A model generated the notes under the pieces. It had not been told where the DNA came from. It searched no databases and saw only the letters and a list, made by a program, of their open reading frames with translations. The translations under genes and the position numbers were made by a program. Below, piece by piece: positions 4,460-42,367 of a DNA stretch of 64,000 nt (position 1 is the stretch's first letter; every line of letters starts with the position of its first letter). Source of the DNA: Blasia pusilla (taxonomy: Eukaryota); the NCBI GenBank assembly GCA_050084515.1, contig CM114271.1, forward strand, positions 28,582,001 to 28,646,000, written 5' to 3'.

Positions 4460-5780
4460 TTCTATATTGCAAGCTCCTTTCTCCTATTCGACTTCTAGGG
4501 TGAAAGATCGGGATCCAACCATATCCTCCGTCCTTTGAGAATGGCCTTGTTAGCCATGGCAGTATCACGTTGAGTTTGATCAAAAAACTTAACTAGAATA
4601 GCACAAGGCTGTGTTCCCGTTTTCCCAATGCATAAAGCATGAGCCAAGTCTGGGTTGTGAACATGAAGTGTATTGACCAAGAACTTGGTGACAACACTCT
4701 TCATCTCTTCGCACTTTATTTCCGGCAATCCGGAGATTCTCACATTCTTTCTACGTGCAATTTGGTTTTTTTGTTCTATCTCTTGCTCTTGATAGAAAGA
4801 GATACGAGCAACCTTTGTAGCTTCAGCATAAGATCTCATTCTCACTTCCAAAGTTTCAACAAACTCATGCAATCTTGAACTATAGGGAGTAGTCGCTAAT
4901 GATGATTTGGAAAGATCCAACATCACACTAAAGCTATCTTTCAACACCTTCTCCAAAACCTCTTGCGTTGCCTTCAACTCTCGGATTCGAATATATGCAA
5001 GGTTCAATTGAGAAGTACGTACCTTGAATTCTTGTCGAAGATCTTTCAATTCATGCAACACCACTTGCACTAGATTCAAGATTTCGTCTTGAGTAGTCAT
5101 CATGTAGTCGACTTCATTACATCCCAGATATTGCACGACCTCCAATCAAGTAGAGTAGAATTTTCAACACCACACAACTTCTGCTCTAGAAGGCGGTTGT
5201 GCTTGAAATTTCCATAGCTTGGGCGTCTCCTCATATTCCATGTTTTCTAAAAATATCAGCTTCATATGATACTCCACATGAAAGATATGGCCTCTGCAAG
5301 ATTCCAATCTGAAATCCTCAAATGTGGAAGAGCAAAAACTCAAATCTCTCACAACTTCATTTTTGTAATCTTTTTGGCCTTAAAACTTGTAGAGCTAGGG
5401 CGTCTCCTTACACTTAACCTCTCTTCCAAATCTCACCTTCATTTGATACTCCCCCTGAAAGATATGGCCTCCGCAAGATTCAGATCTGAAATATTCAAAT
5501 GTGGAAGAGCAGAAACTCAAATCTCTCACACCTTCGTTCGTCTCTATAACTCGGTTGGCCTTGAAATTTGCAGGGCTAAGGCACCTCTTCACATTCCTTG
5601 TGTTTTGAAAATCTTAGCTTCATGTAACATTCTACCTAAAAGCTATAGCCTCGGCAAGATTCAGATCTGAAATCCTCAAATGTGGAAGAGCAGGAACTCA
5701 AATCTCTCACAACATCGTCTCTATAGATGATTGACGAGAGGAAGCTATGGGCAACGTCTTTTCGTGAGCTGAAAAATCAG
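4460..5780 (-). mobile_element. LINE fragment: 5'UTR tandem monomers plus ORF1 (4495-5145)
   Basis: ORF1 coiled coil plus RRM-like motif KNVRISGLPE...AILVKF...RIWLDPDL, shared with copies at 18522-19310, 33201-33914 and 34801-35470; about 179-bp monomers at 5281, 5459 and 5639. Confidence 0.88.
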
Positions 5781-5789
5781 CCATCCACC

Positions 5790-6378
5790 ACATATGCTCT
5801 TCATCCTCAATACTTTCTCAACATAACCTATCACTTCTATCAATATTAAGCCATCGTCATTCCTCAATTCCTAGTCTATAAGACCCAATTCTATGTCGTG
5901 CGATAATATGATGTAAGAACGTGGAGATCCCTGCAAGTAGGTATCCTTGTTCATACTATAAAAGCATAGGATTAACATGAAGTTGATAATACCCCATTTT
6001 TATGCCCGGGCGGCTCCAAATAATGTTGAGGAATTGTTTCTGAAGATGCTCGCGGAGTGTCATTGGTTTCAGGTTCCAATCTTGTTTCGCCATATTCAAC
6101 TTTGAAGAGATAGTCACCACATCCGCAATCCACCTTATGGAATGTATGGCTCGTAAAGCTTGATGAGGGAGATGAGAAACATCAAGAGATCTCACCCTTG
6201 CGATATAAGTGATGGTCAAGTAGAAAGCTTCTTCTTCTAGAGGAAGACAACTTGTTTCCGCAAGAAGAATAGCATAAGGATTTTGGTTACACCCAATTCT
6301 TCTTGTAAAACGATCTTTTGCACCCTCTCCACGCGCTCCCAACCGGTCTTCTTACAGCTAGGGCCCCAAACTTGGGTC
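5790..6378 (-). mobile_element. 3' part of LINE ORF2, split from 15994-19520 by the Gypsy insertion
   Basis: Matches the ORF2 C-terminus of other copies (NQNPYAILLAETSCLPLE...). The sequence resumes at 15994 after a GGTC duplication. Confidence 0.9.
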
Positions 6379-6852
6379 TGTCACATCTGAGTAGCCGATA
6401 GGCCGAGATCTATCGTGGATAGGGCGTAGGAGCCAACGGACTATCTTGAGTGTAACTTTGTCCCACAGTGTCGGATGAGGTTGAGGATAGGTCCATTGTG
6501 TCAGAACGCGTCGTTTCGACGACTTTCTGTTGAGGTCTTTTACACCGGGTGACTTGTTGACCAGGTCACGCCCCTGGTAACCTGTCAGGTGCGCAGTTAC
6601 CAAGGAAGGGCTATTTTTGGGGTTTGAGCCTTTTGGCTCTTCCCAACCTATATAAGAGAGGAAGATGGCTTTCCTAAGCCATCTTTCTCATGTTGGGCCG
6701 TTGGAGCACCTCCCTTGTATGTGTGTGAGCTAGGACTAGGGTGCTAGCGTCCGGATTCCTTGATAGCACAAGGTGGACGAGGCTCGATATGCCGATGTAG
6801 ATTGAGGAGTGGAGTTTTAGGCCGGGTGTGCGTTTTGCTACTCTTTATTTTT
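6379..6852 (+). repeat. Terminal repeat A1 (promoter-bearing LTR part)
   Basis: Closely matches 15387-15855; contains TATATAAG at 6649-6656. Confidence 0.93.
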
Positions 6853-6866
6853 ACATGAGAAAGATG
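6853..6866 (+). promoter_or_regulatory. Putative self-priming primer-binding site
   Basis: ACATGAGAAAGATG is the exact reverse complement of CATCTTTCTCATGT at 6680-6693, which starts 31 nt after the start of the TATA box. There is no TGG-type tRNA PBS here. Confidence 0.75.
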
Positions 6867-8081
6867 TCGGGGTGGTGGGAATTGTTGTTTGCGGGTAGGC
6901 AAGCGTGTTGCCTCGGTTGGGGAGCCCCCGAGACGTGTGTGTGTCATTTTGTGTCATTTTTTTGTTCGAAGGCCGTGGGGAAGCGTATCCGTTTTTCGAT
7001 TTTCTTTGGTGCGATTGTTGGGGACGGCGGCGAGTGTAGCGTGTGGTGGGGCGTCGGGTGTACGCAAGTGAAGGCGTCGAAAAGAGAAGGAACGGACAAG
7101 TTGGGTCTTGCGCCGCCAGCCGGGGCTATCAAGTAAAGCGGCTAGAGTTAGGCACGGATGGCGACGGCGTGGCACGGATGGCGACGGCAGCGCGGCGGTG
7201 GGCGGGGCGCGTGCGCGATGAGCGGCCGGGCGGACCACGGCGCGCGCAGGCCTTCCTCCCCGCGCATTTAGGGCCCAAAGGGCGATAGGTCGTGGCCCAA
7301 GTTCTTCCCCCTCTTTCCGGCGTGGGTAGCACCGACAAGCGGCGGTTGGGCGATCAGTAGCGAACGTGGTAGGACGGACGAGGTCGGTCCGGCGAACGCG
7401 GTGCGCATGAGCAACGTGAGGGCAGGGAGGATGTCGACGTGCTGAGTGATCGACAAGTTGGGCAGCAGGCGTGACATGTTGTTTTGAGGCGCGCATAGGG
7501 CGTTGCGAGAGTTTACGCTGGAGGGGCAGTGTGCATGATGCCGACGGGTTGTCCGCATCTGTTGACGGGAGGATCGACGTGTTGGTCGAGGGGAGTGTTA
7601 TGTGGCGGAGATTGTCATATCATGTGGAGGAGTGCATATTGACGGTGCAGCAGGTTGGAGGGCGTGATCAGGTTACCCATTCGAGTCCCTTTTCCCGCAC
7701 TTATCGTGTGTGATTGAGAGTGTTGGGTATCGGGTATTAGCTGGTGCTAGATGGGTGCAGTGATGGTGACGAGTGTAGATTCTTTTCATGTGTAGCATGT
7801 TGGTGGATATACGGCGGTTGCCGAGTAGGGGTCGCGTGTATGACCCGAGAGAGTGTCGCTAGGTTAGGTGAGTCAGTTGGGAGGCTCATGGTGAGGCCGA
7901 GTGTTGAGCGTGCGTGAGGCCGGGTGTGTCATCACGGGATTGATGTTCGCATAGGTGAGCTAGTGAGGCGTGTGGGAGACTCTCGGTGAGTCTGAGTGCA
8001 TGAGCGGGTGAGACAGGGTTTGTCATCACGGCGTTCTTCCAGGGTTCGGAAGAACGGGGTAGTGCGAGTTGTGGTAGTGGT

Positions 8082-10500
8082 GTGACACGGAGTGGAGTGA
8101 GATATCGAGGGGTTACCAGTGAGGAGCTACCTCGACATCCATCCGTGACTGGATCGTCATCATTAGACACTGGGTCTGGTGACGAGATTGCAGACAGAGA
8201 CAGTAGTACTTGGCAGGAGATGGACGACATGGGCCATCGGGGCATGCGTCGTTTCTCGGGTGCAGTGGGCACCATCCACTTAGATGATTTCATCCAGGAG
8301 TTCGACACATGGTGCGACTTCCAGGAGATACGGACCCCCACACGGTTCAACCCTTTCATGGCATGGAAGGGGTTGTTCCAACACTTGGAGGGTCCTCCGA
8401 TGGATGACTACATGGAGTTTCGATCACTATATTCAATAGAGATCGATGCCTGGAGGATGTATTGGGCTCCAAGGTATGTGTCCACTAGTGGTCGCGAGGC
8501 ATATGATGGGATTGTGAGAGGAGAGAGACCCACACCATCAGCCCGGAGACTAGATGGAGAGGAGGACAAAGTGACACAAAGCGATGTGGCGAGACCTCTC
8601 GATGGTAGAGGGCCACCAGCCAGCCCCACAAAGTGGAGTTCTTCCGACGGTTGGGGAAGAGCTACAGGCGCATGCGCACCGACATGGTGAAGAGTCTACA
8701 GGATTTTTAGCGACGATCGGGTGAGAGTCTGAGAGAGGCATTCACACGCATGAGGAGGCTGATCATTGCTACGTTTGGAGGATCGAGTGGTGTCCGGCAC
8801 CCAAAGATTGGTACTGGGTTCGGGACCGAGAACTACGGAGGAGAGTCCGAGATGCGGTCTTTGATTCACACAACGGCCCACATTGAAGGTGGTCTTTGAG
8901 TTGTCTCGAGCGTATTGAGCTCAACATAAGTGAGGAGCAGGTAGTGACCGCTGGATTTTCTCAAGAGTCGACGGGTCCACAAGCGGCGGTGACCCCACCG
9001 GTGCCATAGCGGGCACCAGTACCACGGGAGCGGGCCAGTGTGCCTAGAGAGCGGGGCGATGGTACCGTGAGCCTATGAGGCAACGACCGCATCTACATAT
9101 GTTGCCCCAGGACCGATGTGGTCTTGTTGGGCGTGTGGAGGGGCCCATAGGCGGAGAGAGCGCCACAAGCATGGGAGAGGACCACAGCGCCTCGATTGCA
9201 CAGAGCCAGGAGAGGATGGCCCCACCACACACACAGTGTGACCATTGCCCAGATATGGTCACACTAGGGATAGATGTTTTGACCTTCGCCGAGGGCCTGG
9301 GGGCGGTCGTCCTGGAGGAGGTCGGGGAGTTCTTCTGGGCGTGGTGGTAGAGGACCACCACCGGCCAGAGGAGATGGAGCAGAGCACACAGAGCCGGCGC
9401 TTCTCGCATCGATCGGTTGAGCGGAGAGGATTGCCGCCATGACGATGATGCGGCTTAGGGAAGGCACGGAGTGCGAGCAACTAGTGTGACTCAGTCTCTA
9501 CCTCTTACCACGACCCGGTGAGGATCTCTCCAATATGGGATTCATGTGTAGTGCAGCCCAGGTTGAGGCAAAATGCGATGTGGTGACTCGGGGTGTCTGC
9601 CGAGAGGCACCGAGCCATCGAGAGGTGGAGTTGAGATTGACCCACCGAGGGGACCGATGGGCGGCAGCCGGGTTCCACATTGTTCACATTGTCGAGGCAC
9701 TACACACACCATCGATGGTGCCTCGGCGACCAACGGTGCCTACGTTCAGCACCCACGTCGACGTCACGAGGAGTTGGAGTGACAACTCCTATGCCGGCTC
9801 GAGTGGAGTCAGTGTCGACTATAGTGTTGGAGGTGGCCACTAGAGTGAGCCAGACTCCGTTATTTTCCGCCATAGAGTTGGCGACGTTGGGAGTTGGACC
9901 AGCTGAGGTGTTCCGGTTGGCCGCCACGTTGTGTGAGCGTGGAGAGATGACTCCTTCTTGTTCAGAGGTAGTTGAGGAGGTGGTGGACTTGCCCTCAGAG
10001 CCGGTGCTCGGGACGTTCCCCACAGAGTCATGGCATGCGGCGGCGGGCGGTTGGTAGATATGCCACTCGACCGGCCATAGAGCGGCGATGGTGACACTGA
10101 GTAGTGATTTGGATAACCGAAGTGGAGTATTTCGCTTGGTTAGTCCGACGGGACGGTATACCACCAGCAGTAGCGTCCTACTTGATTCGGGGCGCAACCC
10201 TTGATGTTAGGGAAGCGGCGTGTTTAGCGTTAGGGTTACGGAAGGCCGACATTGAGCCTTGTCCCTTCCGATCTGAGACCTTGATTGGGGCGTATCACCC
10301 ACTCGATATATGACTCGATAGGAGATTGTTGTCGAGTCGGCCGAGCATGTGACGGATAGTGCTATGGTACGACCGCGCGATTACGACTCGGTGAGTAAAT
10401 GCGATGTGTTGGTGGGGAATGCGAGTGTTATATCCCCTAGGATTCATCCTTGACACGGGAGGAGACCGTTGCTTATCGGCCAGGATGGCGGTCGGTGACG
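8082..10500 (+). pseudogene. gag and aspartic protease region (frameshifted)
   Basis: gag-like RRFSGAVGTIHLDDFIQEFDTWCD; Zn-knuckle remnant CDHC...HT.DRCFDL at ~9235-9290; protease motif LLDSGAQ at ~10178-10200. Confidence 0.75.
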
Positions 10501-10889
10501 TTCGGATGAGTCGATTACCCGTGCGCTTTTGCGGGGCGAGATGGTCGATCACGAGGCGAGTCTGCGACCACGTTGGCGGCTTTCACGGTAGTGTTAGTTG
10601 GCCAGGAGAGTTGTTAGAGGGGAACGACATGCGGAGGATGTCCCGAAAGCGGATAGTCCCACGGAGAGACAGGCCATGGCGGGTGTCTCTTCCCATGTTA
10701 GCAATGCCTCTTCACCATTATGGGGTACAACTCGAGAGCTGAGAGGAGTGCCGCGACCTCGTGAGGCAAAGCGGCGTGGAGTCATGTTTTTATCCCAGCA
10801 GCGTGAGAGTCACGTGGCGTCGGGCTCTTGGAGTGGAGACGATGACCCCACTAGATACCACACTGTTGTGTGGCGGTGCCTGAAGGAGG

Positions 10890-11830
10890 GTGTTAGGGTG
10901 TTAGATCTCTTTGGAGGGATTAGCACCGGATTGGCCGCAGATTGCAAAGCGGGCATACGGGTGCACCAGTACCTTTATGTGGAGAGAGATGAGACTGGCG
11001 AGTATCATTACGCCACGTGGCGAGATTGGTCGAGGTATTACGAGTTGTTGTCGGTATCTGCGATGACGGGGATACAAAGATACGCTACCCGCCGACATAT
11101 CGTTGGTGGGGCGCAGGATCTCGATAGAGTTGGCACCATTCATTTGGTGATTTGGATGGCCATGTCGGGTCATTCATCGGTGGCCGAGGATTTGGATTGC
11201 GGGGGAGGTCGGGGATGTTTTGGGAGATGCTGCGAGTAGTACGACACTTGCAGCAGAGTCAGATATGTTCTATAGCGTATATTTTGGAGAACGTGCCGTT
11301 GTTGGGAGATACTCATGCACGTGTGATGACGAGTGTACATCAGGTGAGGTCCTGGTTGGGACCGGCTGTGTTGTTAGATGCAGCGAGAGTTGGGTCACGT
11401 GCCCATCGTCCATGACTATGGTGGACGAACCTGATTCCATCAGAGGTACTGAGTCGAGCCTACAATGGAGTCCGGAGAGCACCACATCTCACGGTGGATG
11501 CTATTTTGGACTCAGGGCGTCGATCTCAAGTGGTGACACGCGATGATAGACCACCATTGGCCACGGCCAATAGGGTGGGGGAGTTGAGGGCAGCCTTACC
11601 TACGTTGGTGAGCTTCCAAGCATCCCATGCCTTTCGTCAGGGAGGGCCAGGTATGATTTGGGATGAGGTGACCAGAGTATTGGAGGAGCCTACAGCGAGA
11701 TGAGAGCGTGGAGCGCCATGGGGTTCACTACCGGTACTACTGGCGGTGCCGAGGGGATGGCGAGGCATCACGGAGACAGTGTTGGGGAGGCGGCGATGGA
11801 CCTCAAGCTGTCTCTCATATGGATAGTCAC
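10890..11830 (+). pseudogene. DNMT3-like C5 cytosine DNA methyltransferase domain inside the retrotransposon pol (frameshifted)
   Basis: Motif I VLDLFGGI (10898); motif IV GWPC(Q)GHS (11154-11176, across indels); RSGMFWEMLRV; motif VI YILENVP (~11278); motif VIII AHRP*LWWTNL (11401); motif IX/X-like ERAMGF..G.T...RRQ..G.AMD (~11700-11810). Confidence 0.88.
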
Positions 11831-12229
11831 CTAGGTATGGCGAGCGAGACGGATACGAGTGTCATCCATACCGTCACGTCCCAGTTGGACCCCGCCTCTG
11901 TGGTCTATCTGAGGCATTGGTCAAGGGGCGAGACGAGGAGAGATAGGCATCCATGGACTTCTGGGACGTCGTTCGAGCGAGAGAGAGTGCGAAGGCGGCT
12001 AGAGTAGCACATGTTCATTTTGCGAATGTGGGAGCATGGTGTAGGAGGTCATAGTGGAGTGGTACATTGCTATGGAGGTGGCTAGGGTTGCTACATAGCA
12101 ACCAAAGCCGGAGGTTGCGTCCTCTCCGAGTGAGGTCAGAATGGAGACTTGGGAGCCTGTGATAGGTCTCAAGTTGATAGGAGGAGAGCGACGGCAAGTT
12201 CATAGGTTTCTGCGAGGGAATGTCACTTG

Positions 12230-15175
12230 TTTTGCCTTCAGTATGAGAGACTTGGGTTGAAGGGTCGGGATACGGATTGAGTTGGCTAGTGATACGCCAA
12301 TCTTTCGTCGACCCTACAGGTATTCTCGATATGGAGCGAGCCTTGATTGAGCAGAGTCAAGACTTGTGGAGTTATCACATGGGGAGTATGCATCCGCCAT
12401 TCATGTCATGCGGCGAAGAAGGATATGTATGGCAATTGGACGGATAGGCAGATGTGTGGAGATTATCGTTCTATCAACCGACAGACGAGGTCAGATCAGT
12501 ATGCCATGCCTACTCTTGAGGAGATCTTTGATGCGGTAGGGCATGCAAAGATCTTGAAGACGTTAGATCTCGTCTTTGGCTATCATCGGCCTTCCTATCA
12601 GTTGGAGGACAGGAGAAGACAACATTCTGGGGATAGATCGGTTCGGGAGAGATTGCTTGTATCGATGGCGGTTCTTACCATTTGGGTTGAAGAATGCGCT
12701 CGGAGTTTCGAGAGTGATGGATAGGATTCTGGGTGGCTTGGATTTTGTACGATGTTACATAGATAATATTCTTATCTTGATTCCACGGTTGAGGAGCATG
12801 AGCGACACTTGGAGGAGGTGTTTGGCGATTGCGATTACATGGACTGAAGTTACATCCGGCAAGTGCAGATTCTTTCAGAGCAGATTGAGTACTTGGGACA
12901 CACCATATACCCGAGTGGGTTAGGCGTTCAGCAGACGAAGGTAGAGGCTATTGCGCAGATTCCACGCCCTACAGATGTGAGTCGAGTCCGAACATTTCTT
13001 GGACTGGCGAACTTCTATCGACGGTATGTCTAGGGTTTTAGTGCGATCGCAAAGTCTTTGACCTTGTTGACGAGACTTGATCAGGTGTGGTTGTGGGGAG
13101 ATGATCAGGAGCGAGCATTTCAGAGCTCAGGACGAGTTGACGTCCTCACCCATTTTCTGAGAGACCGGTTAGGGGTCGCCCATTCCAGTTACATACGGAT
13201 TGGAGCATGTTGGGTCTAGGAGGAGTGCTTACTCAGAGGGATGACGAGGAGAGGGAGTTCGTTGTGGCTTACGCGAGTTGATTGAACAACATTGCAGAGG
13301 CAAAGTACAGCTCCTATGAGGGAGAGTGCTTGGCTGCAGTGTGGGCCGTGGCACATTTTAGGTGCTATTTATTCGGCAACCCTTTCACACTTATCATTGA
13401 TCATCAGCCGTTGAGATGGTTGATGGAGTCCGACAAGCTTACGGGAAAGCTTGCCAGGTGGGCTCTATTACTACAGGAGTATGAGTTTGAGGTGGTTCAT
13501 AGGCCAGGTTGGCTGAACCAGGATGCGGATGGGTTGAGTCGTAACCCATGTCCGAGTCAGAGAGACGTCACGGGAGCTCGATGGCACGGAGAGAGTGATG
13601 AGGAGATGGTGCCCGATTGGCATGCATCTGCCTATCTTTGTTGGTTGACTATGGTAGGTCAGCCACAGGTGATGACTCAGTGGTGGGGTTGGATGATGAG
13701 TCTTTGGATCCGGAGGTCAGTGAGGAGGTGACATGTGGTCGTGATATCCATGACGACGTGGAGGTTGTGGAGTTCTTGCGCACTGGCGTCATAGCGAGCA
13801 CAGTGAGTACTAGGGAGCGGGATCGGATCCTACAGAGAGCCAAGAGGTTCAGGTGGGAGGGGACTCACATTTTGCGGGTATGGGGAGATGGTAGGATACG
13901 AGTGGTACCTCATCCTTCCCAGCAAGCACGTGTAGTGCGACATGCCCATGAGGAGTTGGGACATTTCGAGTAAAGCGTTACGACTTACTCTAGGTTCGAT
14001 ATTGGTGGCGCGGCATGCATCTTTGGGTGTTGAGCGGTTGTGGCGGATGTATGGTATGTGACAGAGTGCGAGCATCCTTCAATGCTCCCACTCAGATTAC
14101 ATCCTTTGCCGATTATGGGTTTAGGTTATCGGTGGAGTTTAGACTTTTTGCGGGACCTTTGCCATTGACATGGCGTCATCATAGGTGCGTGTTGGTCATG
14201 GTGGAGCATTTCTCCAAGTGGATAGAGTTGGTGGCACTACCGGACAAAGCGGCGAGGGAACTTATGCATTTCTAGATCGTGTGCTTAGTCACTTTGGTGC
14301 ACCGGCGGAGGTGTTGAGTGACCAGGGTACCGAGTTTAGGGGAGAGTTTCAGGCCTTGTGTGATCAGGCGCTGATAGATCACCGCACCACGTCCAGGGAT
14401 CATCCTGAGGCGGATAGATTGGCGGAGAGAGTGGTACAGACGGTGAAGAGAGGATTGCGCAAGTATGGCTTGCAGCGAGGACAGTTGAGGGAGTGGGACC
14501 TACAGTTGCCATGGTTGGCTATGGGTTATCGCTTTAGTCGGCAGGCATCCTTGGCGTCATTTTCACCATACTTTTTGCTCTTTGAGAGAGAGCCAGATTT
14601 ACCTGCAGCGATTCGACGTGACATGGCGGAGGTGTTAGATCTTGATGATCCAGATGTGTGGGTGCAAGCATGTTCTCAGAGGGCAGAAGTTTTTCGTAGA
14701 GTTATGCCAATGGCCTTTGAGAACTTAGCTATTGCCCAGCATAGAGATACATTGAGGTACGCGACCATTCGTGGAGGAGGTTATCGTCTAGGGATTAGGA
14801 GGTTTCATCCTAGAGATAACGTGTATTTACAGCCGGCGGCACCCACGACGCTAGATGTCACTGCAGGGCGCACGATCCTACGTGTGCGCGAGGTATTACC
14901 GACCGGAGTCCTCATGTTGGAGGGACGAGATGGTATGGTTTGGAAGGATCATGTGCGCAATTGTGCGCCATGTCATCTTCCGAACGTAGATGGGATGGTG
15001 GATCCAAGCTTGGCGGTGGTACTGCAAGCTTGAGGTGTATGTTGTGCGGATCACGAGAGTGCGGCCACCATGTTGGTATGTGATGGTTGTTCTCGAGGGT
15101 GGCATATGTCATGTCTGACCCCCCCCTCTTGATGTGGTTCCCACGGGACGATGGATGTGTCCGAGATGTGTATAG
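12230..15175 (+). pseudogene. RT, RNase H, integrase and PHD finger of the DNMT-bearing element (frameshifted)
   Basis: RT MCGDYRSINRQT...TLDL..GY and YIDNILI; RNase H LHTDWS...YSSYEGECLAAVWAV; integrase HAHEELGHF...CMVC and SDQGTEF...AERVVQTVK; PHD C4HC3 at 15036-15175. Confidence 0.93.
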
Positions 15176-15246
15176 GGTAGTAGGTCATGTCAGAGAGATG
15201 TGATATTTTCTATCTGGAGTTAGGAGGATCCAAGCGCCTAGAAGCG

Positions 15247-15993
15247 GTTGTGTGATCTCCATGTATATGTATGAGTTTATTTTTGTACATGTGTGGATCG
15301 ACCCGTGTGTGGGGAAGATCGGTGTTATGTGGTGTAGATGTGACGAGCGATGTATGTTGTGTAGCGATATGTATGCGCACGACAGTTGTCACATCTGAGT
15401 AGCCGATAGGCCGAGATCTATCGTGGATAGGGCGAGGAGCCGGACTATCTTGAGTGTAACTTTGTCCCCAAAGGTGTCGGATGAGGTTGAGGATAGGTCC
15501 ATTGTGTCGAACGTCATTTTTACGACTTTCATGTTTAGGTCTTTACAGTAGGGTGACTTGTCGACCAGGTCACACCCCAGTAACTGTCTTGAAAGTTACC
15601 AAGGGAAGGGCTATTTTTGGGGTTTGAGCCTTTTGGCTCTTCCCAACCTATATAAGAGAGGAAGATGGCTTTCCTAAGCCATCTTTCTCATGTTGGGTCG
15701 TTGGAGCACCTCCCTTGTATGTGTGTGAGCTAGGACTAGGGTGCTAGCGTCCGGATTCCTTGATAGCACAAGGTGGACGAGGCTCGATATGCCGATGTAG
15801 ATTGAGGAGTGGAGTTTTAGGCCGGGTGTGCCGTTTTTGCTACTCTTTATTTTTTGATGTGTGATCTCCATGTATATGTATGAGTTCATTTTTGTACATG
15901 TGTGGATCGACCCGTGTGTGGGGAAGATCGGTGTTGTGTGGTGTAGATGTGACGAGCGATGTATGTTGTGTAGCGATATGTATGCGCACGACA
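15247..15993 (+). repeat. 3' terminal repeat block B1-A2-B2
   Basis: B1 (15247-15384) and B2 (15856-15993) are near-identical 138-bp copies flanking A2; the B1/A2 junction is GACA-GT-TGTC. Confidence 0.93.
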
Positions 15994-18900
15994 GGTCCCA
16001 TGTAAGACCACCGACAACACTAAGCTCCTAAATAAGAACTTTCTAAGACCTAGGATACAAGATGAGCTCTTCTATACCGATTTAAAAATGAATATATAGC
16101 TTTGTAACGAGCTTATACTCTCTTTTGCACCCAAAGTGCCCAACTATAATCATGAGATAAATCAATGCGTAGATATTTATAACTCCTCATTTTTCTAATT
16201 GTTGAAATTTTTAAAAGAAGGAGAATTTGGATCTAGTATCCATTATAATGATTTTAGACTTCACCATATTAACCTCCATCTGATTTTGGGTACAAAAACT
16301 TGCCAAAGTGTCGAGGCGTTTTTTGAAACTAATACCATCACGTGCTAGTAATATGATATAAATAAATTTTTAATAAAAAAAGTCTCCAAGCTGGACATCT
16401 TCATTGTCACATTCTTCCAACCACTTTTCGATATCATATAGGAAAACTCCAAATAGAGTAGGGGAGAGAGGGCAACATTAAGTGACTCCGATAGTACTCA
16501 AGATCTCTTGAGTTTGTGAATCTTTGATCTTGGCTTGAATGGAATGGTACAACGTGACCACGGCAACTAGAAGATATTTTGGTACTCCAATGGCTCGCAA
16601 CCTATCCCATAAGAGCTCAGGAGATAACATATTAAAAGCTTTCTTGAAATCGATGAAACTGCAAAATAAAGCTTTTCCATTGCCCTTAGATTTCTCCCAT
16701 GAAACACGTAAGGCCAAGATATGGTCGATGGTGTTGTATGTTGTGCAAAAACCAACTTGGACTCTACTCTCTTTTGAAAAGACTCCGTCCATGCACTCAA
16801 TTTTGACTCCACCAATTTCCCAAACAGCTTGGCAAAGACACTACCCGCCATGATAGAGCGATAGTTTGTCACCAAATCCTTCCTTCCTGATTTGTGAATA
16901 GGAACAATCTCTTGTAGCGACCAAGTAGAAGGAAAACCATAGATAGCAGCATCACCCAATACTTTGGTGAGGATCGGCCCAATAGAATCTCCTTCCCACT
17001 TGAGAAGTTCAACCGAATGACCATCCAAATCCTCATATATGCCATTTTCTAATTTTCTTAGTTGAGTCATCACGTATGCTTCAGAGAATAAGCCTGGTAT
17101 GCCATCACAATGGGACATAGATGTAGCATGGGGGAAGAAATACAACTTTTCAGCAAAAGATATCAAAGACTAGGGATCAAAATAGGTTTTGAAGACCGTA
17201 CTACTAACCGTCTCCAAAATGATTTGGGGTCGTTATGGAGTTCTCTTGTTCGAAATTCCTGCTTCAGCTACAAGAAATCTTGTTTCTTAGATTTCACCAA
17301 GTGTTTGTAAAGGCTCGTCATGATAAGCCGATTTTGGAGATCCAAAGATTTTCCCATTAATCATAACCTTGCTTGCTTGCATTTAGAGTCAAACCACCCA
17401 TTACAAGGCAGCCTCCTAGCACTTCTACCCCTGTGACGGGAAAAGAACTTGGATGTAGTGTTCTTGAGCAATTTGGTTGGTTGCAAACTTGTTGTGTATT
17501 GATGAGGGCTCCATACAATGTGAGTCTAGAGTTGTTGTAAATGTAGCCTGTAAAGATTTTTTTTACGAGGATCTAATCAAAACTTGGGAGAAGCTAAAAC
17601 GGATTGACATGTTGAGAGAGGAACTTTCTTCGACAATGAGAAAGTATACAAAAGAGGCTCATGATCAGATTCAGATAGAGCTTCTAAAATTTCAAACGTA
17701 GAGATATGAGAGCTATTAGTGGGTGAGGAGAGAAGATAGTCGATGAAGCTAGCACCGGTAGAGGAGAAACATGTATTGGCCTTTTGACCCTTTGGATCCC
17801 ACAGGCTTGATCTAAAGATGCTCGCGGAGTGCCATTTACCATTTATTGGAGTGAGAGTTGGGAAAATGAGAGGTTCCATTAAGAACTTTCAAATTATAAG
17901 TGGCTCCAAAAGTTAAAAAATGCTCTATCAAAGGATTTGTAGAAAGATCTGAAGAGATTCTAGACCACAAACCATCCTCTGGTTCTTCAAGAAGAGGAGA
18001 AGTCAAGGACTCACTAAAATGGGTAAATTGAGCAGTACATGTGCGAGCATTGAAATCCCCAACTAGAAAGACTTCACCTTTGCTTTGATATTTGAGAACA
18101 TCCTCAATAAGTCGATGAAATGGTTGACTCTAACTGCAAGTACACGTTGAGTAGATAAGCATGGACAATGGTCCAAAATAACAAATTGTCAAATAACAAT
18201 AAGATCCCCCTACCAAACCAAGATGTAGCCAATGATATTGGCCCCCAATGTCTTGATCTTCTAGATGTATGAGATGTAGAAATGAAGACCTTATGAAAGT
18301 AGCAATACCGCCATAACCCCTGTTTCATGTTGCCTTCTTTTGTTCCATGTTGATCCCACCAAAGTAAACCTTTGCATCTTTACAATAGTATTGCTCTCAT
18401 GTTCCCAAGTCTCCACAATATTGATGATGTCCGCCATCTTCCAAATTGGTAGAACACTCACATACTTTGTTGTTGAAAGACGGCGTATATTCCACATGAA
18501 CACTCTCAACTTCTTGGATTCCTAGGTTGATAAGTCTCTCTTTCTATTGGTAGCAATTGCTCGACCATCGTGTATAAAAGTTATAAAACTTGCTTCTTGC
18601 GCCTCTTTGACCTTTGCAAGCTCCTTTCTGCTAGTTTCAACTTGTAAAAGTGTAAGATCATGATCCAACCATACCCTCTGTCCTTTGAGAATGGCCTTGT
18701 TATCCATGGTAGTATCACATTGAGTTTGATCAAAAAACTTAACTAGAATAGCACGAGGTTGTGTTCCCTTTTTCCTCATGCGAAAAGCTTGAGCCAATTC
18801 CAGGTTGTGAACATGAAGTGTATCAATCAAGAACTTTGTGACAACACTCTTCACCTCTTCACTCTCTATTTCTGGAAATCTTGAGATTTCACATTCTTTC

Positions 18901-19520
18901 TACGTGGAAATTGGTTCTCCTTTTTTTTTTAATCTTTGGCTCTTGATAGAAAAAGATATGAGCAATCTTTGTAGCTTTAATTTGCACAATATTTCATTTT
19001 CACTTCCAAAGTTTCAACAACCTCATGCAATCTTGAACTATAGGGAGTAGTTGTTAAGGATGATGCCTTCTCTTGAACATCCACAATAGATTTGGAAAGA
19101 TCCACCATCACACTAGAACTATCTTTCAACACCTTCTTCAAAACCTCTAACATTGCCTTCAACTCTCGAATATGTGCAAGGTTCAATTGAGAAGTACGTA
19201 CCTTGAATTCTTGTCAAAGCTCTTTCAATTTATGCAAGACCACTTGTTCTAGATTCAAGATTTCCTCTTGAGTAGTCATCATGAAGTGGACTTCACTATA
19301 TCCCCGATATTACACGACCTACAATCAAATAGAGCAGAATCTCCAACACCACGCAACTTCTTCTTTATAAGTCGGTTGTGCTTGAAATTTTGAGCAATTC
19401 TGTGCCTTGTCAAATCCTAAAAGCTACAAGATCAGAATCTCCAACACCCTACAACTTCTTCTCTACAAGTCAATTATGCTTGAAAGTTTGAGCAATTTTG
19501 GATCTTGGCAACCTCCATCC
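15994..19520 (-). mobile_element. RTEX-like LINE: 5'UTR, ORF1 (~19310-18522) and ORF2 APE-RT (from ~18521), degraded
   Basis: APE motifs LRVFMWNI, NIVETW, LVGDFNA, IDYLL, SDH; RT motifs IVPIHKSG, FIDFKKAF, CPLSPTLF; many stops. Confidence 0.9.
17780..17843 (+). mobile_element. 64-bp 5'-truncated LINE 3' end with TSD
   Basis: LINE terminal motif CTTTTGACCCTTTGGATCCCACAGGCTTGATCTA plus ATTTACCATT tail; TATTGG duplicated at 17774-17779 and 17844-17849; the site is empty in the paralog near 36060. Confidence 0.8.
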
Positions 19521-19529
19521 TCCTTGACG

Positions 19530-21725
19530 GCTTATCATGACGTGCCTTTACAAACACTTGGTGAAATCCAAGAAACAAGTTTTCTTGCAGCGGAAGCAAG
19601 AGTCCTTAACAAGGGAACTCCATGACGACCCCAAATCATTCTAGAGGCGGTTAATAGTACGGTCTTCAAAACCTACTCTTGATTCAAAGTCTTTGATATC
19701 TTTTGCTGAAAAGCTCGACTTCTTTCCCCATGCTACTACATCTATGTCGCGTTGTGGAGGCATACCAGGCTTATTCTCTCAAGCAGAGGTGATGACTCAA
19801 CTACGAAGATTAGCAAATGGAAAATGTGAGGATCTAGATGGTCTTTCTATTGAACTTCTCAAGTGGGGAGAAGATTCTATCGGACCGATCCTCACCAAAG
19901 TATTGGGTGATGCTGCTATCTATGGTTTTCCTTCTACTTGATCGCTACGAGAGATTTTCCTATTCACAAATCAAGAAGGAAGGAATTTGTGACAAACTAT
20001 CGTACTATCATGGTAGATAGTATTTTTGCCAAGTTGTTTGGGAAATTGATGGAGTCAAAGTTGAGCGGATGGACAGAGTCTTTCCAAAAGAGAGCACGGG
20101 TCCAAGTTGGTTTTCGTCCAACATACAATACCATCGACCATATCTTGGTCTGACGTGTTTTATGGGAGAAATCTAAGGGCAATGGGACAGCTTAACTTTG
20201 CGATTTCATCAATTTCAAGAAAGCTTTTGATATCGTAAGCTCTTATGGGATAGGCTGCAAGCCATTGGAGTACCACCAAATCTCCTAGCAGCCGTGGCCA
20301 CATTGTACCATTCCGTTCGGGCCAAGATCAAAGCTTCACAAACTCAAGAGATCTTGAGTACTATCGGAATCATTCAAGGTTGCCCTCTCTCCCCTACTCT
20401 ATTTGGAGTTTTCATAGATGATATCGAAAAGTGGTTGGAGGAATGTGATAGTGAGGGTATCACGCTTGGGGGCTTTATCATCAAAGCTCTACTGTATGCA
20501 GATGATATCATATTACTAGCACGTGATGGCGTTAATTTACAAAAACTCCTCGACACTTTGGCAAGTTTTTGTACCCATAATCAGATGGAGGTTAATATGG
20601 AGAAGTCTAAAGTCATTATAGTGGATACTATATCCAAGTTCTCGTTCTTTTATAAAGGTCTACAATTAAAACAAGTGAAGAGTTACAAATATCTAGGCAT
20701 TGATTTCTCTCATGACTATAGTTGGACACGTTGCGTGCAAAAGAGAGTAGAAGCTGGTTACAAAGCTCTATATTCATTTTTAAATTGGTGTAGAAGAGCT
20801 CATCTTGTGTCCTTGGGTCTTAGGAAGTTCTTATTTAGGAGCTTAGTGTTGCCCGTGGTCTTATATGGGATCTGAGTTTGGGGCCCTAGTTGTAAGAAGA
20901 CAAGTAGAGAGCGCATTGAGAGGTTGCAAAAGATCATTCTACAAGAAGAATTGGGTGTAAGAAACCAAACTCCTTATGCTTTTCTTCTTGCGGAAACAAG
21001 TTGTCTTCCTCTAGAGGTTGAATTCTCTACTTGACCATCACTTATATTGCACGCGTGAGATCTCTTGATGTTTCTCGTCTCCCTCATCAAGTTTTGCGAA
21101 CCACACGTTCCATAGGGTGGATTTTGGATGTGGTAACTTGGTCTTCAAAGTGGAATGTGGCGGAATGAGATTGGGACTTGAAACCGATGGCACTTCGCGA
21201 TCATCTACAAAAGCAATTTCTCAACATTATTTGGAGCAACGTGGGCACAAAAATGGAGTATTATCAACTTCATGTTAATCCTATTGTGAACAAGGATAGC
21301 TTCTTGCGAGGATCTCCACATTCTTATGTCATATTATTGCACGACATAGAAGTGGGTCTCATAGGCAAGGAATTGAGGAACACCGATGGTTTAATATTGA
21401 TAGAAGTGAATAAATTTGTAGGTTATGTGACGGAGAAAATATCGAGGATGAAGAGCATGTGTTTGTTATATGCCCAAGATATGAAGAGATTAGACTATCT
21501 CATAAAATAGATGTGCAGAATTTCTATTCTTTACTACAACTAGTGCCTTATGATTTAGGTTGTTTTAGTAGGGATGTCATTATTCATTGCTCAAATGCTC
21601 TTGGAAATAGCTAGGAGAAGGTCTCTAGGATCTTTTTTCGGGTTAGTGAATGAATAACTTGTAATGTGTTTTTTAGCCTTTGGATCCTTTGGGTTGCACA
21701 GGCTTGATCTATTTACCATTTACCA
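19530..21725 (+). mobile_element. 5'-truncated RTEX-like LINE (RT, C-terminal Cys/His domain, 3' tail)
   Basis: QGCPLSPTLF, LLYADD and YKYLG in ORF 20294-20875; ends GGCTTGATCT-ATTTACC-ATTTACC. Confidence 0.92.
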
Positions 21726-21729
21726 ATTA

Positions 21730-22360
21730 TTTGCAAATTTCTGCTTGAGATCACCACCCCCCACAAAGATATAGCCTCCGCAATATTTTGAGCTCAAATC
21801 TACAAGACTAGAATCTTCAACACCACACAACGTCTTCTCTATGATTTGGTTGTGCTTGAGATTTTGAGAAGTTGTGTGCTTTGGAAACGTCCAACTTACC
21901 AATAAAATTTCAGCTTGAGATCAGAACCCCCCACAAAGATACAGTCTCTGCAAGATTTTGAGCTCTAATCTTCAAATCTACAAGATCAAAATTTCCAACA
22001 CCACACAACTTCTTCTCTATAAATTGGTTGCCCTTGAAATAGTGAGAAATTATGCACCTAGGAAACCTTCAACTTCCCTAAAAATTCTAGCTTGAGATCA
22101 CAATACACCACAAAGATAGAGCCTTGCAAGATTCTAAGTTCCAATCCTCAAATCTACAAGATCGGAATCTTCGACACCATACAACTTCTTCCCTATAAAT
22201 CAATTATCCTTGAAAGTTTAAGCAGTTGTGCACCTTGGAAACCTCCAATTTCCTTGCAAATTTCAGCTTGAGATCGCAACTCACTACAAAGATATAGCCT
22301 CCGCAAGATTATGAGCTCCAATCCTCAAATCTACAAGATCAGAATCTCCAACACCACCAC
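21730..22360 (-). repeat. Tandem ~175-bp monomers of the LINE 5'UTR type
   Basis: AAGATATAGCCTCCGCAAGATT...AAATCTACAAGATCAGAATCTCCAACACCAC recurs at about 21766, 21936, 22112 and 22289; the same monomer precedes ORF1 at 32700-33050. Confidence 0.85.
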
Positions 22361-22364
22361 ATCC

Positions 22365-25300
22365 AACAGGGCGTGCAGACCAACAAGTTAAAGAGTCTAC
22401 AGGATTTTCAATGAAGATCAGATGAGAGTCTAAGAGAGACGTTCATACGCATGCGGAGACTGATCATTGCAATATATGGGGTGACTAAGCTGCAGTCGGG
22501 ACCAGGAGCTATGGAGGAGAGTTTGGGATGTGATGTTGCTTCACACGCCAAAGCCCACATTAAAGATGGTCTTCGAGTTGTCAGAGCAGGTAGAGCTCAA
22601 TGTGAGTGATCGAGGAGCAGGTGATGACCACATAATTTTCATGGGATTTGACGGGTTTGCAAGTAGGAGTAGCCCCATAAGTGCTCCAGCATGCACCAGT
22701 ACAACGAGAGCGAGCCTGTGGGCCTAAAGAGTAGGGCGGGTATTGTAAGTCGCTCACACAACAGCCCGTGTCAACATATGTTACCTAGTAGGGACCAAGG
22801 TTGGCTTGTTGGACGTGTGGTGGGCCATATAGGCAGAGGAACCACCCACACCATGGTAGAGGGCCAAGGACACCTTCGATTGTTGAGGAGCCACCTCAGA
22901 TGGCCCCACCACAATTGTAGTGTGATCATTGTTTCCGATGTGGTCACACTAGGGATAGGTATTTTGATCTTCGTCGGGAGATACGTCTAGAGGCAGGCAG
23001 AGGACCTAAGGGTGAGAGAGTTGGTGGAGATTGAGTACTGGATGATCATGGTGGTAGAGTTCCATCACCAATCACAAGAGATGGAGGGAGTGCACCCGAT
23101 GCAACATTCCTTTCTCGCGTCGATTAGTTGGAGTAGAGGATTGCTACCATGATGGTCATGCAGCTAGGGACAGGCACAAAGCTGAGAGTAGCTAGTGTGG
23201 CTCCAACCCCATGTCTTACCATGATACGAGTGAGGATTCTTGTGGTATGGGATTTATGTGTAGTGCAGCTCAGGTTGAGGCTGTTGCGGAGGTCACTCGG
23301 GGTGCTGCGAGAGTAACCGCGCCATCGAGAGGTGGGATTGAGATTAACCGAGAGAAAGGGACCCATGGGCGGCAAGCCAGGGTTCCTAGTCGTTCACGTT
23401 GTTGGAGGCACTTCATATACTGTCAATTGGCGCCTCGACGACCAGTAGTACCAACGGGTGGGACAGGTATGTCGACGTTATGAGGAGTTGGAGAGACGAC
23501 TCCTATGTCAGCTTGGATGGAGCCTTTGTTGACCACATTGTTGGAGGTGGCCACTAGGATGAACCAACCTCCGTTGTTTTCTATCATAGAGTTGGCGGCA
23601 AAGGGAGTCAGACTAGCGGAGGCGTTCTGGCTGGCCACCATGTTGTGTGAGCGTGGAGAGGTGACTCCCTCTCATTCAGAGATATTTGAGGAGATGGTGG
23701 ATGTATCCTCGGATCAGGTGCTCAAGACGTCCCCCACTCAATCATGACATGTTGCGATGATAAAGTTGGTAGATATGCCAACTAGGCCAGCGATAGAGCG
23801 AGCCATGATCACAGCAAGTGTGGTATTGTTGGATAACCGAGCAAGAGTGCTTTGCTTGGTTAGTCCCATAGGTACAGTGTACCACCTACTGCGCGTACTA
23901 CTTGATTCGAGAGCGCAACTCTCGAGGTTACGGAAGGTGGTGTATTTAGCGTTGGGGTTACGGAAAGGCGACATCCAATAATGTCCCTTTCAGATATAGA
24001 CCTCTATTAGGGGCGTATCACCCACGCGGTTCATGACTCGATAGGAGTTGGTGGTTAGACTCGAGCCATAGCATGAGACAGATAGTGTGATGGTACACAC
24101 TCGGGCGATTACGACACCGACAAAGTCATATGATGTGTTGCTTGGGAGTACGGTGTTGTATTCCCTTGGTTTTATCTTGGATTTTTGGGAGGAGACAATT
24201 TCTTATCGGCCATGGTAGCAATCAGGTGATGGATGACTCGATGAGCCATCTACCGATGAAATTTGCAGGGGGTAGTGATGGTCGACCACGTGAGGATACA
24301 GTTACCACATCGGCAACATTCACAAGTGGTGTTAGTTGATCAAGAGGGTTTGAGGAGAGGAGTACACATATGGAGGACATTCCCATAGCGGATAGTCCCA
24401 CAGAGAGACATGCCAGTGTGGGTGTCTCTTCCCATGGTGCGGAGCTTCTTTATTGTTGTTAGGGATGAGCGTTGAGTTGCGTGGAGTCCAAACGAGCTCG
24501 TGAGGCAGTCGTGGAGTCATGCCTGTTTCTTGGAGCAGATAGAGTCAGGTGAAGGTCGTACTCTTGGGATGGAGACTTCATATCTTCGGGTACCATATGT
24601 GGTAGCGTTTGGAGCAGGGTAGGAGAGTGTTAGATCTCTTACGAGGGATCAACACGACAGGTACTTGCAGTGTTGCAATGTTGGAGGGACAACAACACCG
24701 ATGGTGCTAGATGTGTATAGGATAGTAGATCATGTAGGGCATATATGCGTGTGTTGTCTGGAGTTAGGGGCACCCAAATGCCAGCTAGGGGGGCGGTTGT
24801 GGGATCTTGATGTATATGAGTGAGTTAGTTTGGTTTATGGATAGATCGACCCTTGTGTTGGGAAGATTGGTATTGTGTGGTGTGTAGATGTGGGTTGTGT
24901 AGCGATGTGTTTGGGCACGACAATTGTCACATCTTAGTAGGTGATAGGTAGAGATCTATCGCAGTGACGACATAGAGAGCTGGCGGACTGTCTTGAGTGT
25001 AACTTCGTTCCGAGGTGTTGGATGAGGTTGAGGATAGGTCCATTGTGTTAGGAACGTTGTTTCTGAGAACTTTTTTATTTTGGTCGTTGTCAACCGGATG
25101 ACTTGTTGAGCAGGTCATCCACCCCCTAGTAACCTGTGCACATAGGTTACCACGAGGATTGTTAGTTTTAGGGAAAGAGCCTTTTGGTTCTTCCTACATC
25201 TATATAAGGGAGAGAGATGGCTTTCCCAAACCATCTTTCTTATGTTGGGCCGTTGGAGCACCTCTCTTGCTCGTGTGTGAGATAGGACCAAGGTGCTAGC

Positions 25301-25541
25301 GTCCAGACTCCCTCATCGCGGAGGGTGGATGAGGCTCGATATGTCGATGTCGATTGAACAGTGGAGTTTTAGGTCGGGTGTGCCATTTTCACTCTTATTT
25401 TTGTTGTGGGATCTCGATGTATATGTGTGAGTTTGTTTGGTTTATGGATGGATCAACCAGTGTGATGGGAAGATCGGTGTTGTGTGGTGTGTAGATGTGA
25501 CCAACGATGTGGGTTGTGTAGCAATGTATATGCGCAAGACA
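22365..25541 (+). mobile_element. Second, diverged, 5'-truncated and internally deleted copy of the DNMT-Gypsy family
   Basis: Colinear with 8665-10930 (gag, protease VLLDSRAQ, MTase motif I start RVLDL at ~24625). It then jumps to a PPT-like AGGGGGGCG and B1 24796-24922, A2 24925-25402, B2 25403-25541. Confidence 0.9.
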
Positions 25542-32689: not shown

Positions 32690-33960
32690 GCTTAAATATT
32701 AAAGTTGCTAGGAGTGATGATAGAAAGAACTTGCAAAGGCTGTATCTTTGTGGTGGATTTTTCTCTCAAGCTGCAATTTGTAGGAAAGTTGGACGTTGCC
32801 AAGGCGCACAACTGCTGACAATTTCAAGCACAACCAAATTATAGAGAAGAATTTGTGTGGTCTTGGAGATTCAACTCTTGGAGATTTGAGGATTGGAGTT
32901 CAGAATCTTGCAGAGGCTGTATCTTTGTGGTGGGTTGTGATCTCAAGGTGAAATTTGCAAGGAAGTTGGAGGTTGCTAAGGCGCACAACAAATAAAAATT
33001 TCAAGCACAATTGACTTATAGAGTAGAAGTTGTGTGGTGTTGGAGATTTGCTACGCTTGATTGGAGGTCATGCAATATCTTGGGATGTTGTGAAGTCCAT
33101 TTCATGATGACTACTCAAGATGAAATCTTGAATCTAGTACAAACGGTCTTGCATGAACTGAAAGAGCTTCGAAAAAAAATTCAAGGTACAAACTTCTCAA
33201 TTGAACCTTGCACATATTCAAACTAGAGAGTTGAAAACAACGCAAGAGATCTTGAAGAAGGTGTTGAAAGATAGCTCTAGTATGATGGTGGTTCTTTCCA
33301 AATCTGTTGCGGATGTTGAAGAGAAGGCATCATCATTAGCGACTACTGCTAATAGTTCAGGATTGCATAAGGTTATTGAAATTTTGGAAGTGAAAATGAA
33401 ATCTTATGTTGAAACTACAAAGGCTTCTTATATCTCTTGCTATCAAGAGCAAGAGATAGAAAAAGAAAACCAATTTGCTCATAGAAATGAGCATACAAAG
33501 AATGTGAGAATCTCAGATTTGCCGAAAACAGAGAGTCAAGACGTGAAGAGTGTTGTCACCAAGTTCTTGGTTGATATACTTCATGGTCACAACGGAGACT
33601 TGGCTCAAGCTTTCCGCATTGGTAAAAAGGGAAGACAATCTCGTTCCATTCTACTTAAGTTTGTTGATCAAACTCAACGTGATACGGCCATGGCTAACAA
33701 GGCCATTCTCAAAGGAAGGAGGATATTGTTGGATCCTGATCTTACCCCTCTACAAGTTGAAGCTAGGAGAAAGGAGCTTGCAAAGGTCAAAGAGGCTCAA
33801 GAAGTAGGTTTAATTGCTTATCTATGCGATGGTCAAGCAATTGTTACCCAGAGAAAGAGAGACTTATCAACCAAGCAATCCAAGAAGTTGAGAGTGTTGA
33901 TTTGGATTATATGAGGCCTTTCAATGACAAAGTTTTTGTGAGTGCTCTATCACTTTGAAA
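32690..33960 (+). mobile_element. LINE 5' fragment: monomers, ORF1 (33201-33914) and first codons of ORF2
   Basis: ORF1 homologous to the other copies; reads into KKLRVLIWI, the APE start. Confidence 0.9.
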
Positions 33961-34110
33961 GATGGTAAATGGTAAATAGATCAAGCCCATGAGACCCAAA
34001 GGTTCAAAAGGCTAAAAAACACTTTACAAGTAATACACTGACACAGAAAAACACCCGAAAGGCATTCTCCTAGCTAATGCCTAAAGCACTTGAGCGATGC
34101 ATAATGATAT
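33961..34110 (-). mobile_element. LINE 3' end fragment
   Basis: GGTAAATGGTAAATAGATCAAGCCC is the reverse complement of the family terminus and tail. Confidence 0.8.
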
Positions 34111-34119
34111 AAAAAGCTA

Positions 34120-42365: not shown

Positions 42366-42367
42366 AT

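Follow-up and report, generated by a model that had tools for sequence, protein, structure and literature searches.

Self-primed reverse transcription is established for the Tf1 element of fission yeast, as reported by Lin and Levin in 1997 and by Atwood-Moore in 2006. Among plant elements, self-priming is predicted, in the available text of one survey, only for the Tcn1 chromoviruses of mosses and club-mosses and for the Ty1/copia TAR elements, and the same text names no other plant Ty3/gypsy group with self-priming and mentions no elements with a PHD integrase (Neumann 2019, PMC6317226). A Gypsy element with a Dnmt3 domain, KnitGypsy-Dnmt3, has been described from Klebsormidium nitens, and the legend of Fig. 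4c in that paper states that its repeats are arranged as in DIRS; the accessible parts of the paper give no primer site, junction anatomy or replication model (de Mendoza 2018, PMC5890265). A 2026 preprint, in its accessible part, uses the name streptophyte Gypsy-DNMT3 for the KnitGypsy-Dnmt3 elements and mentions no primer site. Gypsy-DNMT3 or KnitGypsy-Dnmt3 as a name was found in no more than two papers. In Chlamydomonas, Gypsy-7a_cRei is described, in the available text, as carrying a PHD finger beside the integrase and a left LTR without the last 8 bp of the right LTR (Craig 2022, PMC9940879). Literature on split direct repeats with an integrase dealt only with tyrosine-recombinase elements or consisted of general reviews, with the combination not described, and a literature search found no paper combining a self-priming retrotransposon with Marchantia.

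The window analysed here, a 64,000-nucleotide stretch of DNA from the liverwort Blasia pusilla, contains at 6379-15993 a decayed Ty3/gypsy-type retrotransposon of the DNMT3-like/PHD-finger-integrase lineage. In a manner like that of Tf1/sushi elements, the 5′ repeat is directly followed by a site that can pair with the 11-15 nt proposed to begin the element's RNA, and a TGG-type tRNA site is lacking. In contrast to these elements, the integrase ends in a PHD finger and not in a chromodomain, a DNMT3-like domain is present, and the repeats are split in the order A-internal-B-A-B instead of forming two identical bounding LTRs. The comparison with Tf1/sushi elements in an earlier note on this DNA extends no further than the proposed mechanism; the PHD finger, the DNMT3-like domain and the split A/B repeats mark a different lineage. 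On these features the element is outside the Tf1/sushi group and belongs with the split-repeat Gypsy-Dnmt3/PHD elements.

With Tcn1 and TAR the element has in common a predicted self-priming in a non-seed plant, whereas Tcn1 is a chromodomain lineage related to Tf1/sushi. As far as the available description of KnitGypsy-Dnmt3 goes, both elements combine the domains of a Gypsy element with a Dnmt3-type methyltransferase inside pol and show the A-coding-B-A-B repeat order, and PF00145 proteins of Klebsormidium are among the relatives listed in our protein search; the host in the present case is, in contrast, a liverwort. The A1-internal-B1-A2-B2 order, with an internal B-A junction that mirrors both ends, is also that of DIRS, Ngaro and PAT, but in the window element it comes with a DDE (rve) integrase, TG...CA ends and a 4-bp target duplication. 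DIRS elements, in contrast, insert without a target duplication and encode a tyrosine recombinase, for which there was no hit in the 16 open reading frames scanned or in the 120 relatives listed. Gypsy-7a_cRei is similar in its PHD finger by the integrase and in a small LTR asymmetry of the same kind, but it has long ordinary LTRs, and neither self-priming nor a B repeat is described for it in the available text (PMC9940879).

Repeat layout and coding region

The element is flanked by a 4-bp GGTC duplication at 6375-6378 and 15994-15997, which was located by comparison with four uninterrupted copies of the host repeat H in the window, each carrying the site once. Compared with these empty sites, the insertion begins with TGTCAC at 6379 and ends with CGACA at 15993, all features lying on the plus strand. 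Repeat A1 (6379-6852) starts with TGTCAC, is 92.9% identical to A2 over 481 nt by blastn, and is divisible into a U3-like part (6379-6679) and an R/U5-like part (6680-6852). At the other end of the internal part, the purine-rich tract AGAAGCGG (15240-15247), represented by a G run in the older copy and in other families, stands immediately 5′ of repeat B1 (15249-15384), which ends in CGACA and is 98.5% identical to B2 over 137 nt. A 2-nt spacer, GT (15385-15386), separates B1 from A2 (about 15387-15855, from blastn and a three-way alignment), and B2 (15858-15993, from its match to B1 and the empty-site comparison) follows, its terminal CGACA forming the right end of the inserted unit. The layout is thus A1-internal-B1-A2-B2, and in both the window element and an older copy the B repeat flanks A2. 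Because the GGTC duplication encloses B2, B2 belongs to the inserted unit, and a plain two-LTR element was rejected on the same ground. The TG...CA ends and the short target-site duplication are those of a Ty3/gypsy element.

The older relative (22366-25541, plus strand) has lost its 5′ end and consists of an internal part, B1′ (24796-24892), A2′ (24925-25402) and B2′ (from 25403). Its A2′, the second copy of the earlier note, is 79% identical to A, and its B2′ matches B1′ at 89.7% through 25499 and the B repeat of the window element at 82% through 25541. The surviving 5′ part stops against an array of ~177 bp tandem repeats near 22361. Such arrays, at 5118-5725, 21735-22357 and 32730-34712, lie among nested repeats, and the window element is itself nested in a copy of H (5790-6378 with 15996-16178). 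H also occurs around 37050-37827, 45434-46017, 20875-21409 (minus strand) and 38970-39230, with at least four uninterrupted copies in the window.

The two A copies are a mosaic: the first ~225 nt (6379-6603 versus 15387-15603) show many substitutions and indels, and the last 233 nt are 99% identical. Since reverse transcription should give identical copies, this pattern indicates that gene conversion or recombination took place afterwards, and the identity of the repeats is therefore unusable for dating the window copy.

The coding part is interrupted by stops and frameshifts, and Pfam hits were obtained in three of the 16 open reading frames scanned. A degraded DNMT3/DRM-like C5-methyltransferase domain (10898-11700, plus strand) was recognised by tblastn and by alignment of motif I. 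Residues 113-271 of the relative P0017, its PF00145 region, matched 11215-11700 with 40% identity (E = 1.7e-18), and methyltransferase motif I aligns to the start of P0017. This domain is below the Pfam threshold in the window copy and gave no hit by Pfam alone; its PDB matches were weak (E = 0.11-0.8), and a PDB sequence search with a second methyltransferase-like open reading frame returned no matches. The reverse transcriptase and RNase H (12111-13650, plus strand), with frameshifts and stops, were identified by Pfam (RT_RNaseH, E = 1.1e-20) and tblastn. They are followed by a frameshifted integrase with an H2C2 zinc finger, an rve core and a C-terminal PHD finger (13683-15126, plus strand; Pfam and tblastn). 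The hits to RVT_1 (E = 3.2e-4) and rve (E = 9.8e-6) are both under their curated cut-offs. In tblastn, the integrase was 59-73% identical to P0017, P0006 and P0002, through their PHD ends. The order reverse transcriptase, RNase H, DDE integrase, that of Ty3/gypsy elements, is supported by Pfam, by tblastn and by intact relatives. Among these, P0017 has the order DNMT-RT-RNaseH-integrase-PHD and P0037 has the DNMT domain between RNase H and integrase, and the PHD finger (PF00628) is at the integrase C-terminus in P0002, P0006, P0017 and P0037.

In a search with the integrase open reading frame, 7999 candidates were scored and 180 proteins matched at E up to 0.001; 120 of these were listed. Named sources among the matches listed are Marchantia polymorpha (78%), Calypogeia fissa (77%), Klebsormidium nitens and volvocine algae, from which the host, too, looks like a liverwort or something closely related. 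Most of the 120 carry PF00628, 10 carry PF00145, and none carries a chromodomain (PF00385). No tyrosine recombinase (Phage_integrase) hit was obtained in the 16 open reading frames scanned or in the 120 matches listed. Within the window, a further integrase-coding stretch at 42362-43519 has ~75% DNA identity to 13868-15045 and, judged from this identity, is another relative of the same lineage.

The complement at the end of repeat A and in related families

The 14 nt at 6853-6866 (ACATGAGAAAGATG, plus strand) are the exact reverse complement of 6680-6693 (CATCTTTCTCATGT, plus strand); a direct check of the sequence thus bore out the perfect complementarity that the earlier note had claimed. 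Its placement of these 14 nt directly 3′ of repeat A was also correct, since blastn and the three-way alignment both end A at 6852. The spacing it had given from the TATA box agrees as well: TATATAAG (6649-6656, plus strand) is the sole TATA[AT]A of repeat A, and the segment 6680-6693 begins 31 nt past its first T. In what follows, 6680-6693 is the proposed self-primer, the putative first 14 nt of the transcript, and 6853-6866, which adjoins A1, is the proposed primer-binding site.

The 23 nt spanning the end of A are complementary to the remainder of A over at most 14 nt, a length reached in none of 5000 dinucleotide shuffles of A (mean 6.06, maximum 12). A scan of both strands of the 64-kb window, with 78 TATA[AT]A sites, for a segment of at least 11 nt placed 24-40 nt after the TATA and with its complement 90-600 nt downstream returned only the 6680/6853 site. 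The earlier note had further relied on the second copy. The spacing there is as described, TATATAAG at 25201 being followed 31 nt later by CATCTTTCTTATGT at 25232 with a single C>T change that would yield a G-U pair. Its value as evidence is nevertheless smaller than was assumed, because this copy is the 3′ copy (A2) of an older element without its 5′ end and has no site of its own; it shows conservation of the segment only.

TGG is the mark of a tRNA primer site in the available text of Spaller 2016 (PMC5006619), and no TGG occurs within 20 nt after A1 in the window element or in the loci L004 and L038, which represent two further families. The sole TGG-type candidate in the window element is the leader motif TGGTGGGAATTG (6875-6886, plus strand), 23 nt past the repeat end. 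Its core GTGGGAATT, shared with the second family, is found in leaders 5-27 nt past the proposed site in families 1 and 2 (L002, L003, L008, L018, L019 and L024) and is absent from family 3. ARAGORN predicted no tRNA genes in the window or in any of the 80 loci described below, and Rfam gave no matches in 6000-16200 at E up to 1.

Relatives were collected by a profile scan of metagenome contigs, which gave 394 confirmed stretches, 80 loci being kept. Among the 51 loci of at least 6 kb, both A copies were found around the integrase in L038, L066, L074 and L077, whose integrases are ~50% identical to that of the window element. These four have a G run, a B1 ending in ...CACGACA, 2 nt, an A2 starting with TGTCATG, and then B2. 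The 4-bp duplication is perfect in three of the five units, namely the window element, L066 (CATT) and L074 (ATCA), and L038 matches at three of four bases, whereas L077 shows no clear duplication. Of 48 related loci whose sequence continues for 1500 nt or more past the integrase match, 18 had a B1...B2 repeat. A second family, with integrases 72-78% identical to that of the window, provided A1 copies in L002/L003, L004, L008, L018/L019 and L024. L002-L010 and L079, the closest loci by integrase (72-78%), have no bracketing A1/A2 pair in their contigs, which may be due to assembly breaks at repeats, and the A1 copies of these closest relatives were used singly. L008 was considered as an intact reference and set aside, being degraded too. 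Exact-pattern scans for repeat A gave no matches in viral contigs and none in metagenome contigs.

The same arrangement recurs in the other two families with different letters. In L004, TATAAAGT is followed 31 nt later by AGTTCTTTGAGT, and ACTCAAAGAACT stands directly after A1, giving a 12-nt complement that was reached in eight of 5000 shuffles. In L038, TATAAAAG is followed 32 nt later by AGTTTTTCTAGAATT, and AATTCTAGAAAAACT directly after A1 forms a 15-nt complement that was reached in none of 5000 shuffles. Each family has one TATA only in its A, at the same 31-32 nt spacing from the segment, and the sequences of segment and site differ among the three families while their position is the same. 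Each segment pairs with its own site over 14, 12 and 15 nt (window, L004 and L038, respectively), versus 5-6 nt for every cross-family pair; the integrases of the three families are 50-76% identical. The sequence after A1 marks the exact repeat end in three of the five whole units, as is required of a minus-strand primer site. Joint change of primer and site across subfamilies, which the earlier note had put forward as a check, is accordingly seen in three families, each with a 12-15 nt complement to its own site.

Within families the pairing is partly eroded. Fifteen A1 copies were examined after the duplicates L003 and L019 had been dropped, and a Watson-Crick run of at least 10 nt was present in nine of them; with G-U pairs allowed, the run reaches 15 nt in L039 and 13 nt in L070. 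In four of the five copies of the second family (L002, L008, L018 and L024) only 5-9 nt are left, with segment deletions in two. Within the third family, that of L038, two paired positions are changed together in L074, with G>A in the segment and C>T in the site; the G-U intermediate occurs in L070 and L056, and an A-C mismatch in L066. Transitions are the commonest decay changes, and this single compensatory pair could be due to chance. Therefore, the weight was placed on the comparison between families and little on L074.

The earlier note had also described an upstream arm able to pair with the segment, and folding confirmed it: the primer-site-like sequence at 6656-6670 (plus strand) forms a hairpin with 6676-6690 of −22.4 kcal/mol, and only one of 200 shuffles folds as well. 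The corresponding hairpin has −13.9 kcal/mol in copy 2 and −14.3 in L004, where the arm differs in sequence and is again site-like; no such hairpin was found on folding L038. Lying between the TATA and the proposed start, the arm would presumably be transcribed in the 3′ copy only, where it could mask the segment, and it would compete with the primer site if transcription began further upstream. When the RNA was folded from the segment start, pairing of the 5′ end with the site appeared in the minimum-energy and centroid folds of all three families.

Reads from three raw RNA runs carrying the same species label were aligned to 6300-7100 at 90% likeness, 99-102 of them per run. In these runs there was no pile-up of RNA starts near 6680, and depth mirrors the conservation of DNA copies. 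The leader (6867-7100) had almost no RNA reads, and no full-length RNA from an A1 was seen. The first mates of reads over A lie mostly on the minus strand, which in most stranded libraries corresponds to sense RNA. RNA reads that reach the end of A continue into B, and the RNA runs as well as a DNA run show either the end of B or varied flanks in front of A. In this DNA run, which has the same species label, copies of the repeat family are very numerous; summed word depth there was 10,000-20,000 over A versus about 200-400 for flank and leader. An index search of sequencing runs returned matches that include air metagenomes, with no RNA run among them.

Proposed self-priming and alternative explanations

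We regard self-priming as the best-supported explanation of the complement, with a probability of about 0.65, the start site, the cleavage and the priming being putative. That pairing is kept with different letters in relatives suggests, as far as sequence comparison can tell, a start of copying that is independent of tRNA. The RNA would most likely start ~31 nt downstream of the TATA, close to 6680 or exactly there, and its first 11-14 nt would fold back onto 6853-6866, directly after A1. As in Tf1, the 5′ end of the RNA itself would then prime minus-strand DNA, which would begin at the last base of A.

An unusual 3′ end was found in two loci from different samples, L006 (3362-3878) and L007 (1413-1928). 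It consists of B1, A2, the site sequence and an inverted copy of 176-179 nt, which comprises the U3-like part with the segment and ends in ...GGTCATGACA beside unrelated DNA. This form looks like the insertion of a plus strand whose end was a primer copy and which had folded back onto the start of its R; it may also be an artefact of assembly. Since a plus strand that copies the primer would make such a form, the site sequence after A2 was counted for self-priming.

Covariation demonstrates pairing, not its purpose, and the pairing could function without priming the minus strand. It might act as a long-range RNA interaction in packaging, dimerisation or translation control, or it might prime the second strand, in which case the 3′ end of the completed minus-strand cDNA, identical in sequence to the site, would fold onto the complement of the site. 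The upstream hairpin, which gives the segment more than one partner, is in keeping with such a role, as is the fact that the split-repeat layout is known from tyrosine-recombinase elements, which replicate via internal complementary sequences. On the other hand, in each of the three families the site begins precisely where A ends, a position that a primer site predicts and a packaging or translation signal does not, and no other candidate for a primer site adjoins A1. The fold-back copies in L006 and L007, moreover, join the site sequence to the end of A2, which fits a plus strand that copied the primer. We consider a role of this kind unlikely, though it is the most serious of the alternatives.

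The complement might instead have arisen through the history of the sequence and serve no function today, for example if a copied primer-site sequence had been taken into the repeat. The upstream arm is indeed a second site-like copy inside A, and every copy seen is decayed; however, families with no more than 50% integrase identity, and with A sequences that have diverged beyond alignment, still keep the complement, and its position relative to the TATA is fixed. This makes a functionless relic very improbable. Slightly less probable still is priming by a host tRNA or tRNA fragment, at 6853-6866 or at the TGG motif at 6875-6886, with an incidental complement in A. Although TGG opens TGGTGGGAATTG at 6875 and the second family also has its core GTGGGAATT in the leaders, the motif is 23 nt past the repeat boundary in the window element, about 40 nt past it in the second family and absent from the third. 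Priming there would also put the intervening bases into the repeat, and they are not in it. A shared tRNA would hold the site constant, whereas three families have three site sequences, each fitting its own R start.

A proposed B+A repeat and its bearing on replication

In every unit seen, a purine or G-rich tract adjoins the start of B1 and the site adjoins the end of A1. The spacer between B1 and A2 is always 2 nt (GT, AT, GC or AC) and lies between CA and TG. At the joint between A2 and B2, the base that immediately precedes the site meets the bases that immediately follow the purine tract, with minor variation from copy to copy. Among the joints in L022-L077 and at 15850-15860 of the window, some have five extra bases identical to those after the G run, others have one or two extra bases like the start of the primer site, and L038 has neither kind. 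The junctions of retroviral two-LTR circles vary likewise. We infer that repeat A is not the whole replicative repeat. Because the G-rich tract adjoins the start of B1 and the primer site adjoins the end of A1, the replicative repeat may be B+A and the inserted form a permutation of it, which we hold with less confidence than self-priming.

Canonical priming alone does not give the order A-internal-B-A-B. In the model we propose, reverse transcription, starting from self-priming, would produce a B+A repeat with the purine tract and the self-primer site as its limits, and the A2-B2 joint would be two cDNA ends joined. Between B and A, at the CA-2 nt-TG junction, the product would then be opened by the integrase to generate A-internal-B-A-B with a 4-bp duplication; on paper, cutting at the B-A junction would leave recessed CA-3′OH ends with 2-nt overhangs. 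The alternative product, A-B-A-internal-B, was never seen: none of the 14 A1 copies with a site (13 distinct) is preceded by B, and their flanks are unrelated. Random opening of a two-repeat circle at either B-A junction is doubted for the same reason. Since no A1 copy is preceded by B, the choice of junction is not random, and the permutation model is incomplete.

A different form was found in L004 (8247-11224), which has A1, the primer site, an internally deleted pol, the purine tract and B, lacks A2-B2, and has the flanks GGTT and TGTT (three of four bases). This A-internal-B form could have resulted from recombination between B1 and B2 or could be an alternative insertion product.

Only tentatively, with the odds against it, do we propose that these elements form a widespread green-lineage branch of Ty3/gypsy with hybrid replication, in which the minus strand would be self-primed, the repeat would be B+A, the cDNA ends would be joined and a DDE integrase would open the CA-2 nt-TG junction. 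Such replication, if true, would be a third route between classical LTR and DIRS-type replication, and the split-repeat order, so far tied to tyrosine-recombinase elements, would have been reached with a DDE integrase. Self-priming in the PHD-integrase/DNMT3 lineage, if true, would mean either that priming without a tRNA has more than one origin or that its age and distribution have been underestimated. The present analysis would describe for the first time, base by base, the structure of Gypsy elements with DIRS-like repeats, in which the priming sites define B+A and the insertion ends lie at the internal junction, and it would turn a one-line remark in a figure legend into a testable replication model. 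Tools for finding and dating LTR elements that rely on a pair of identical LTRs and a tRNA site will overlook such elements in bryophyte and algal genomes or date them wrongly.
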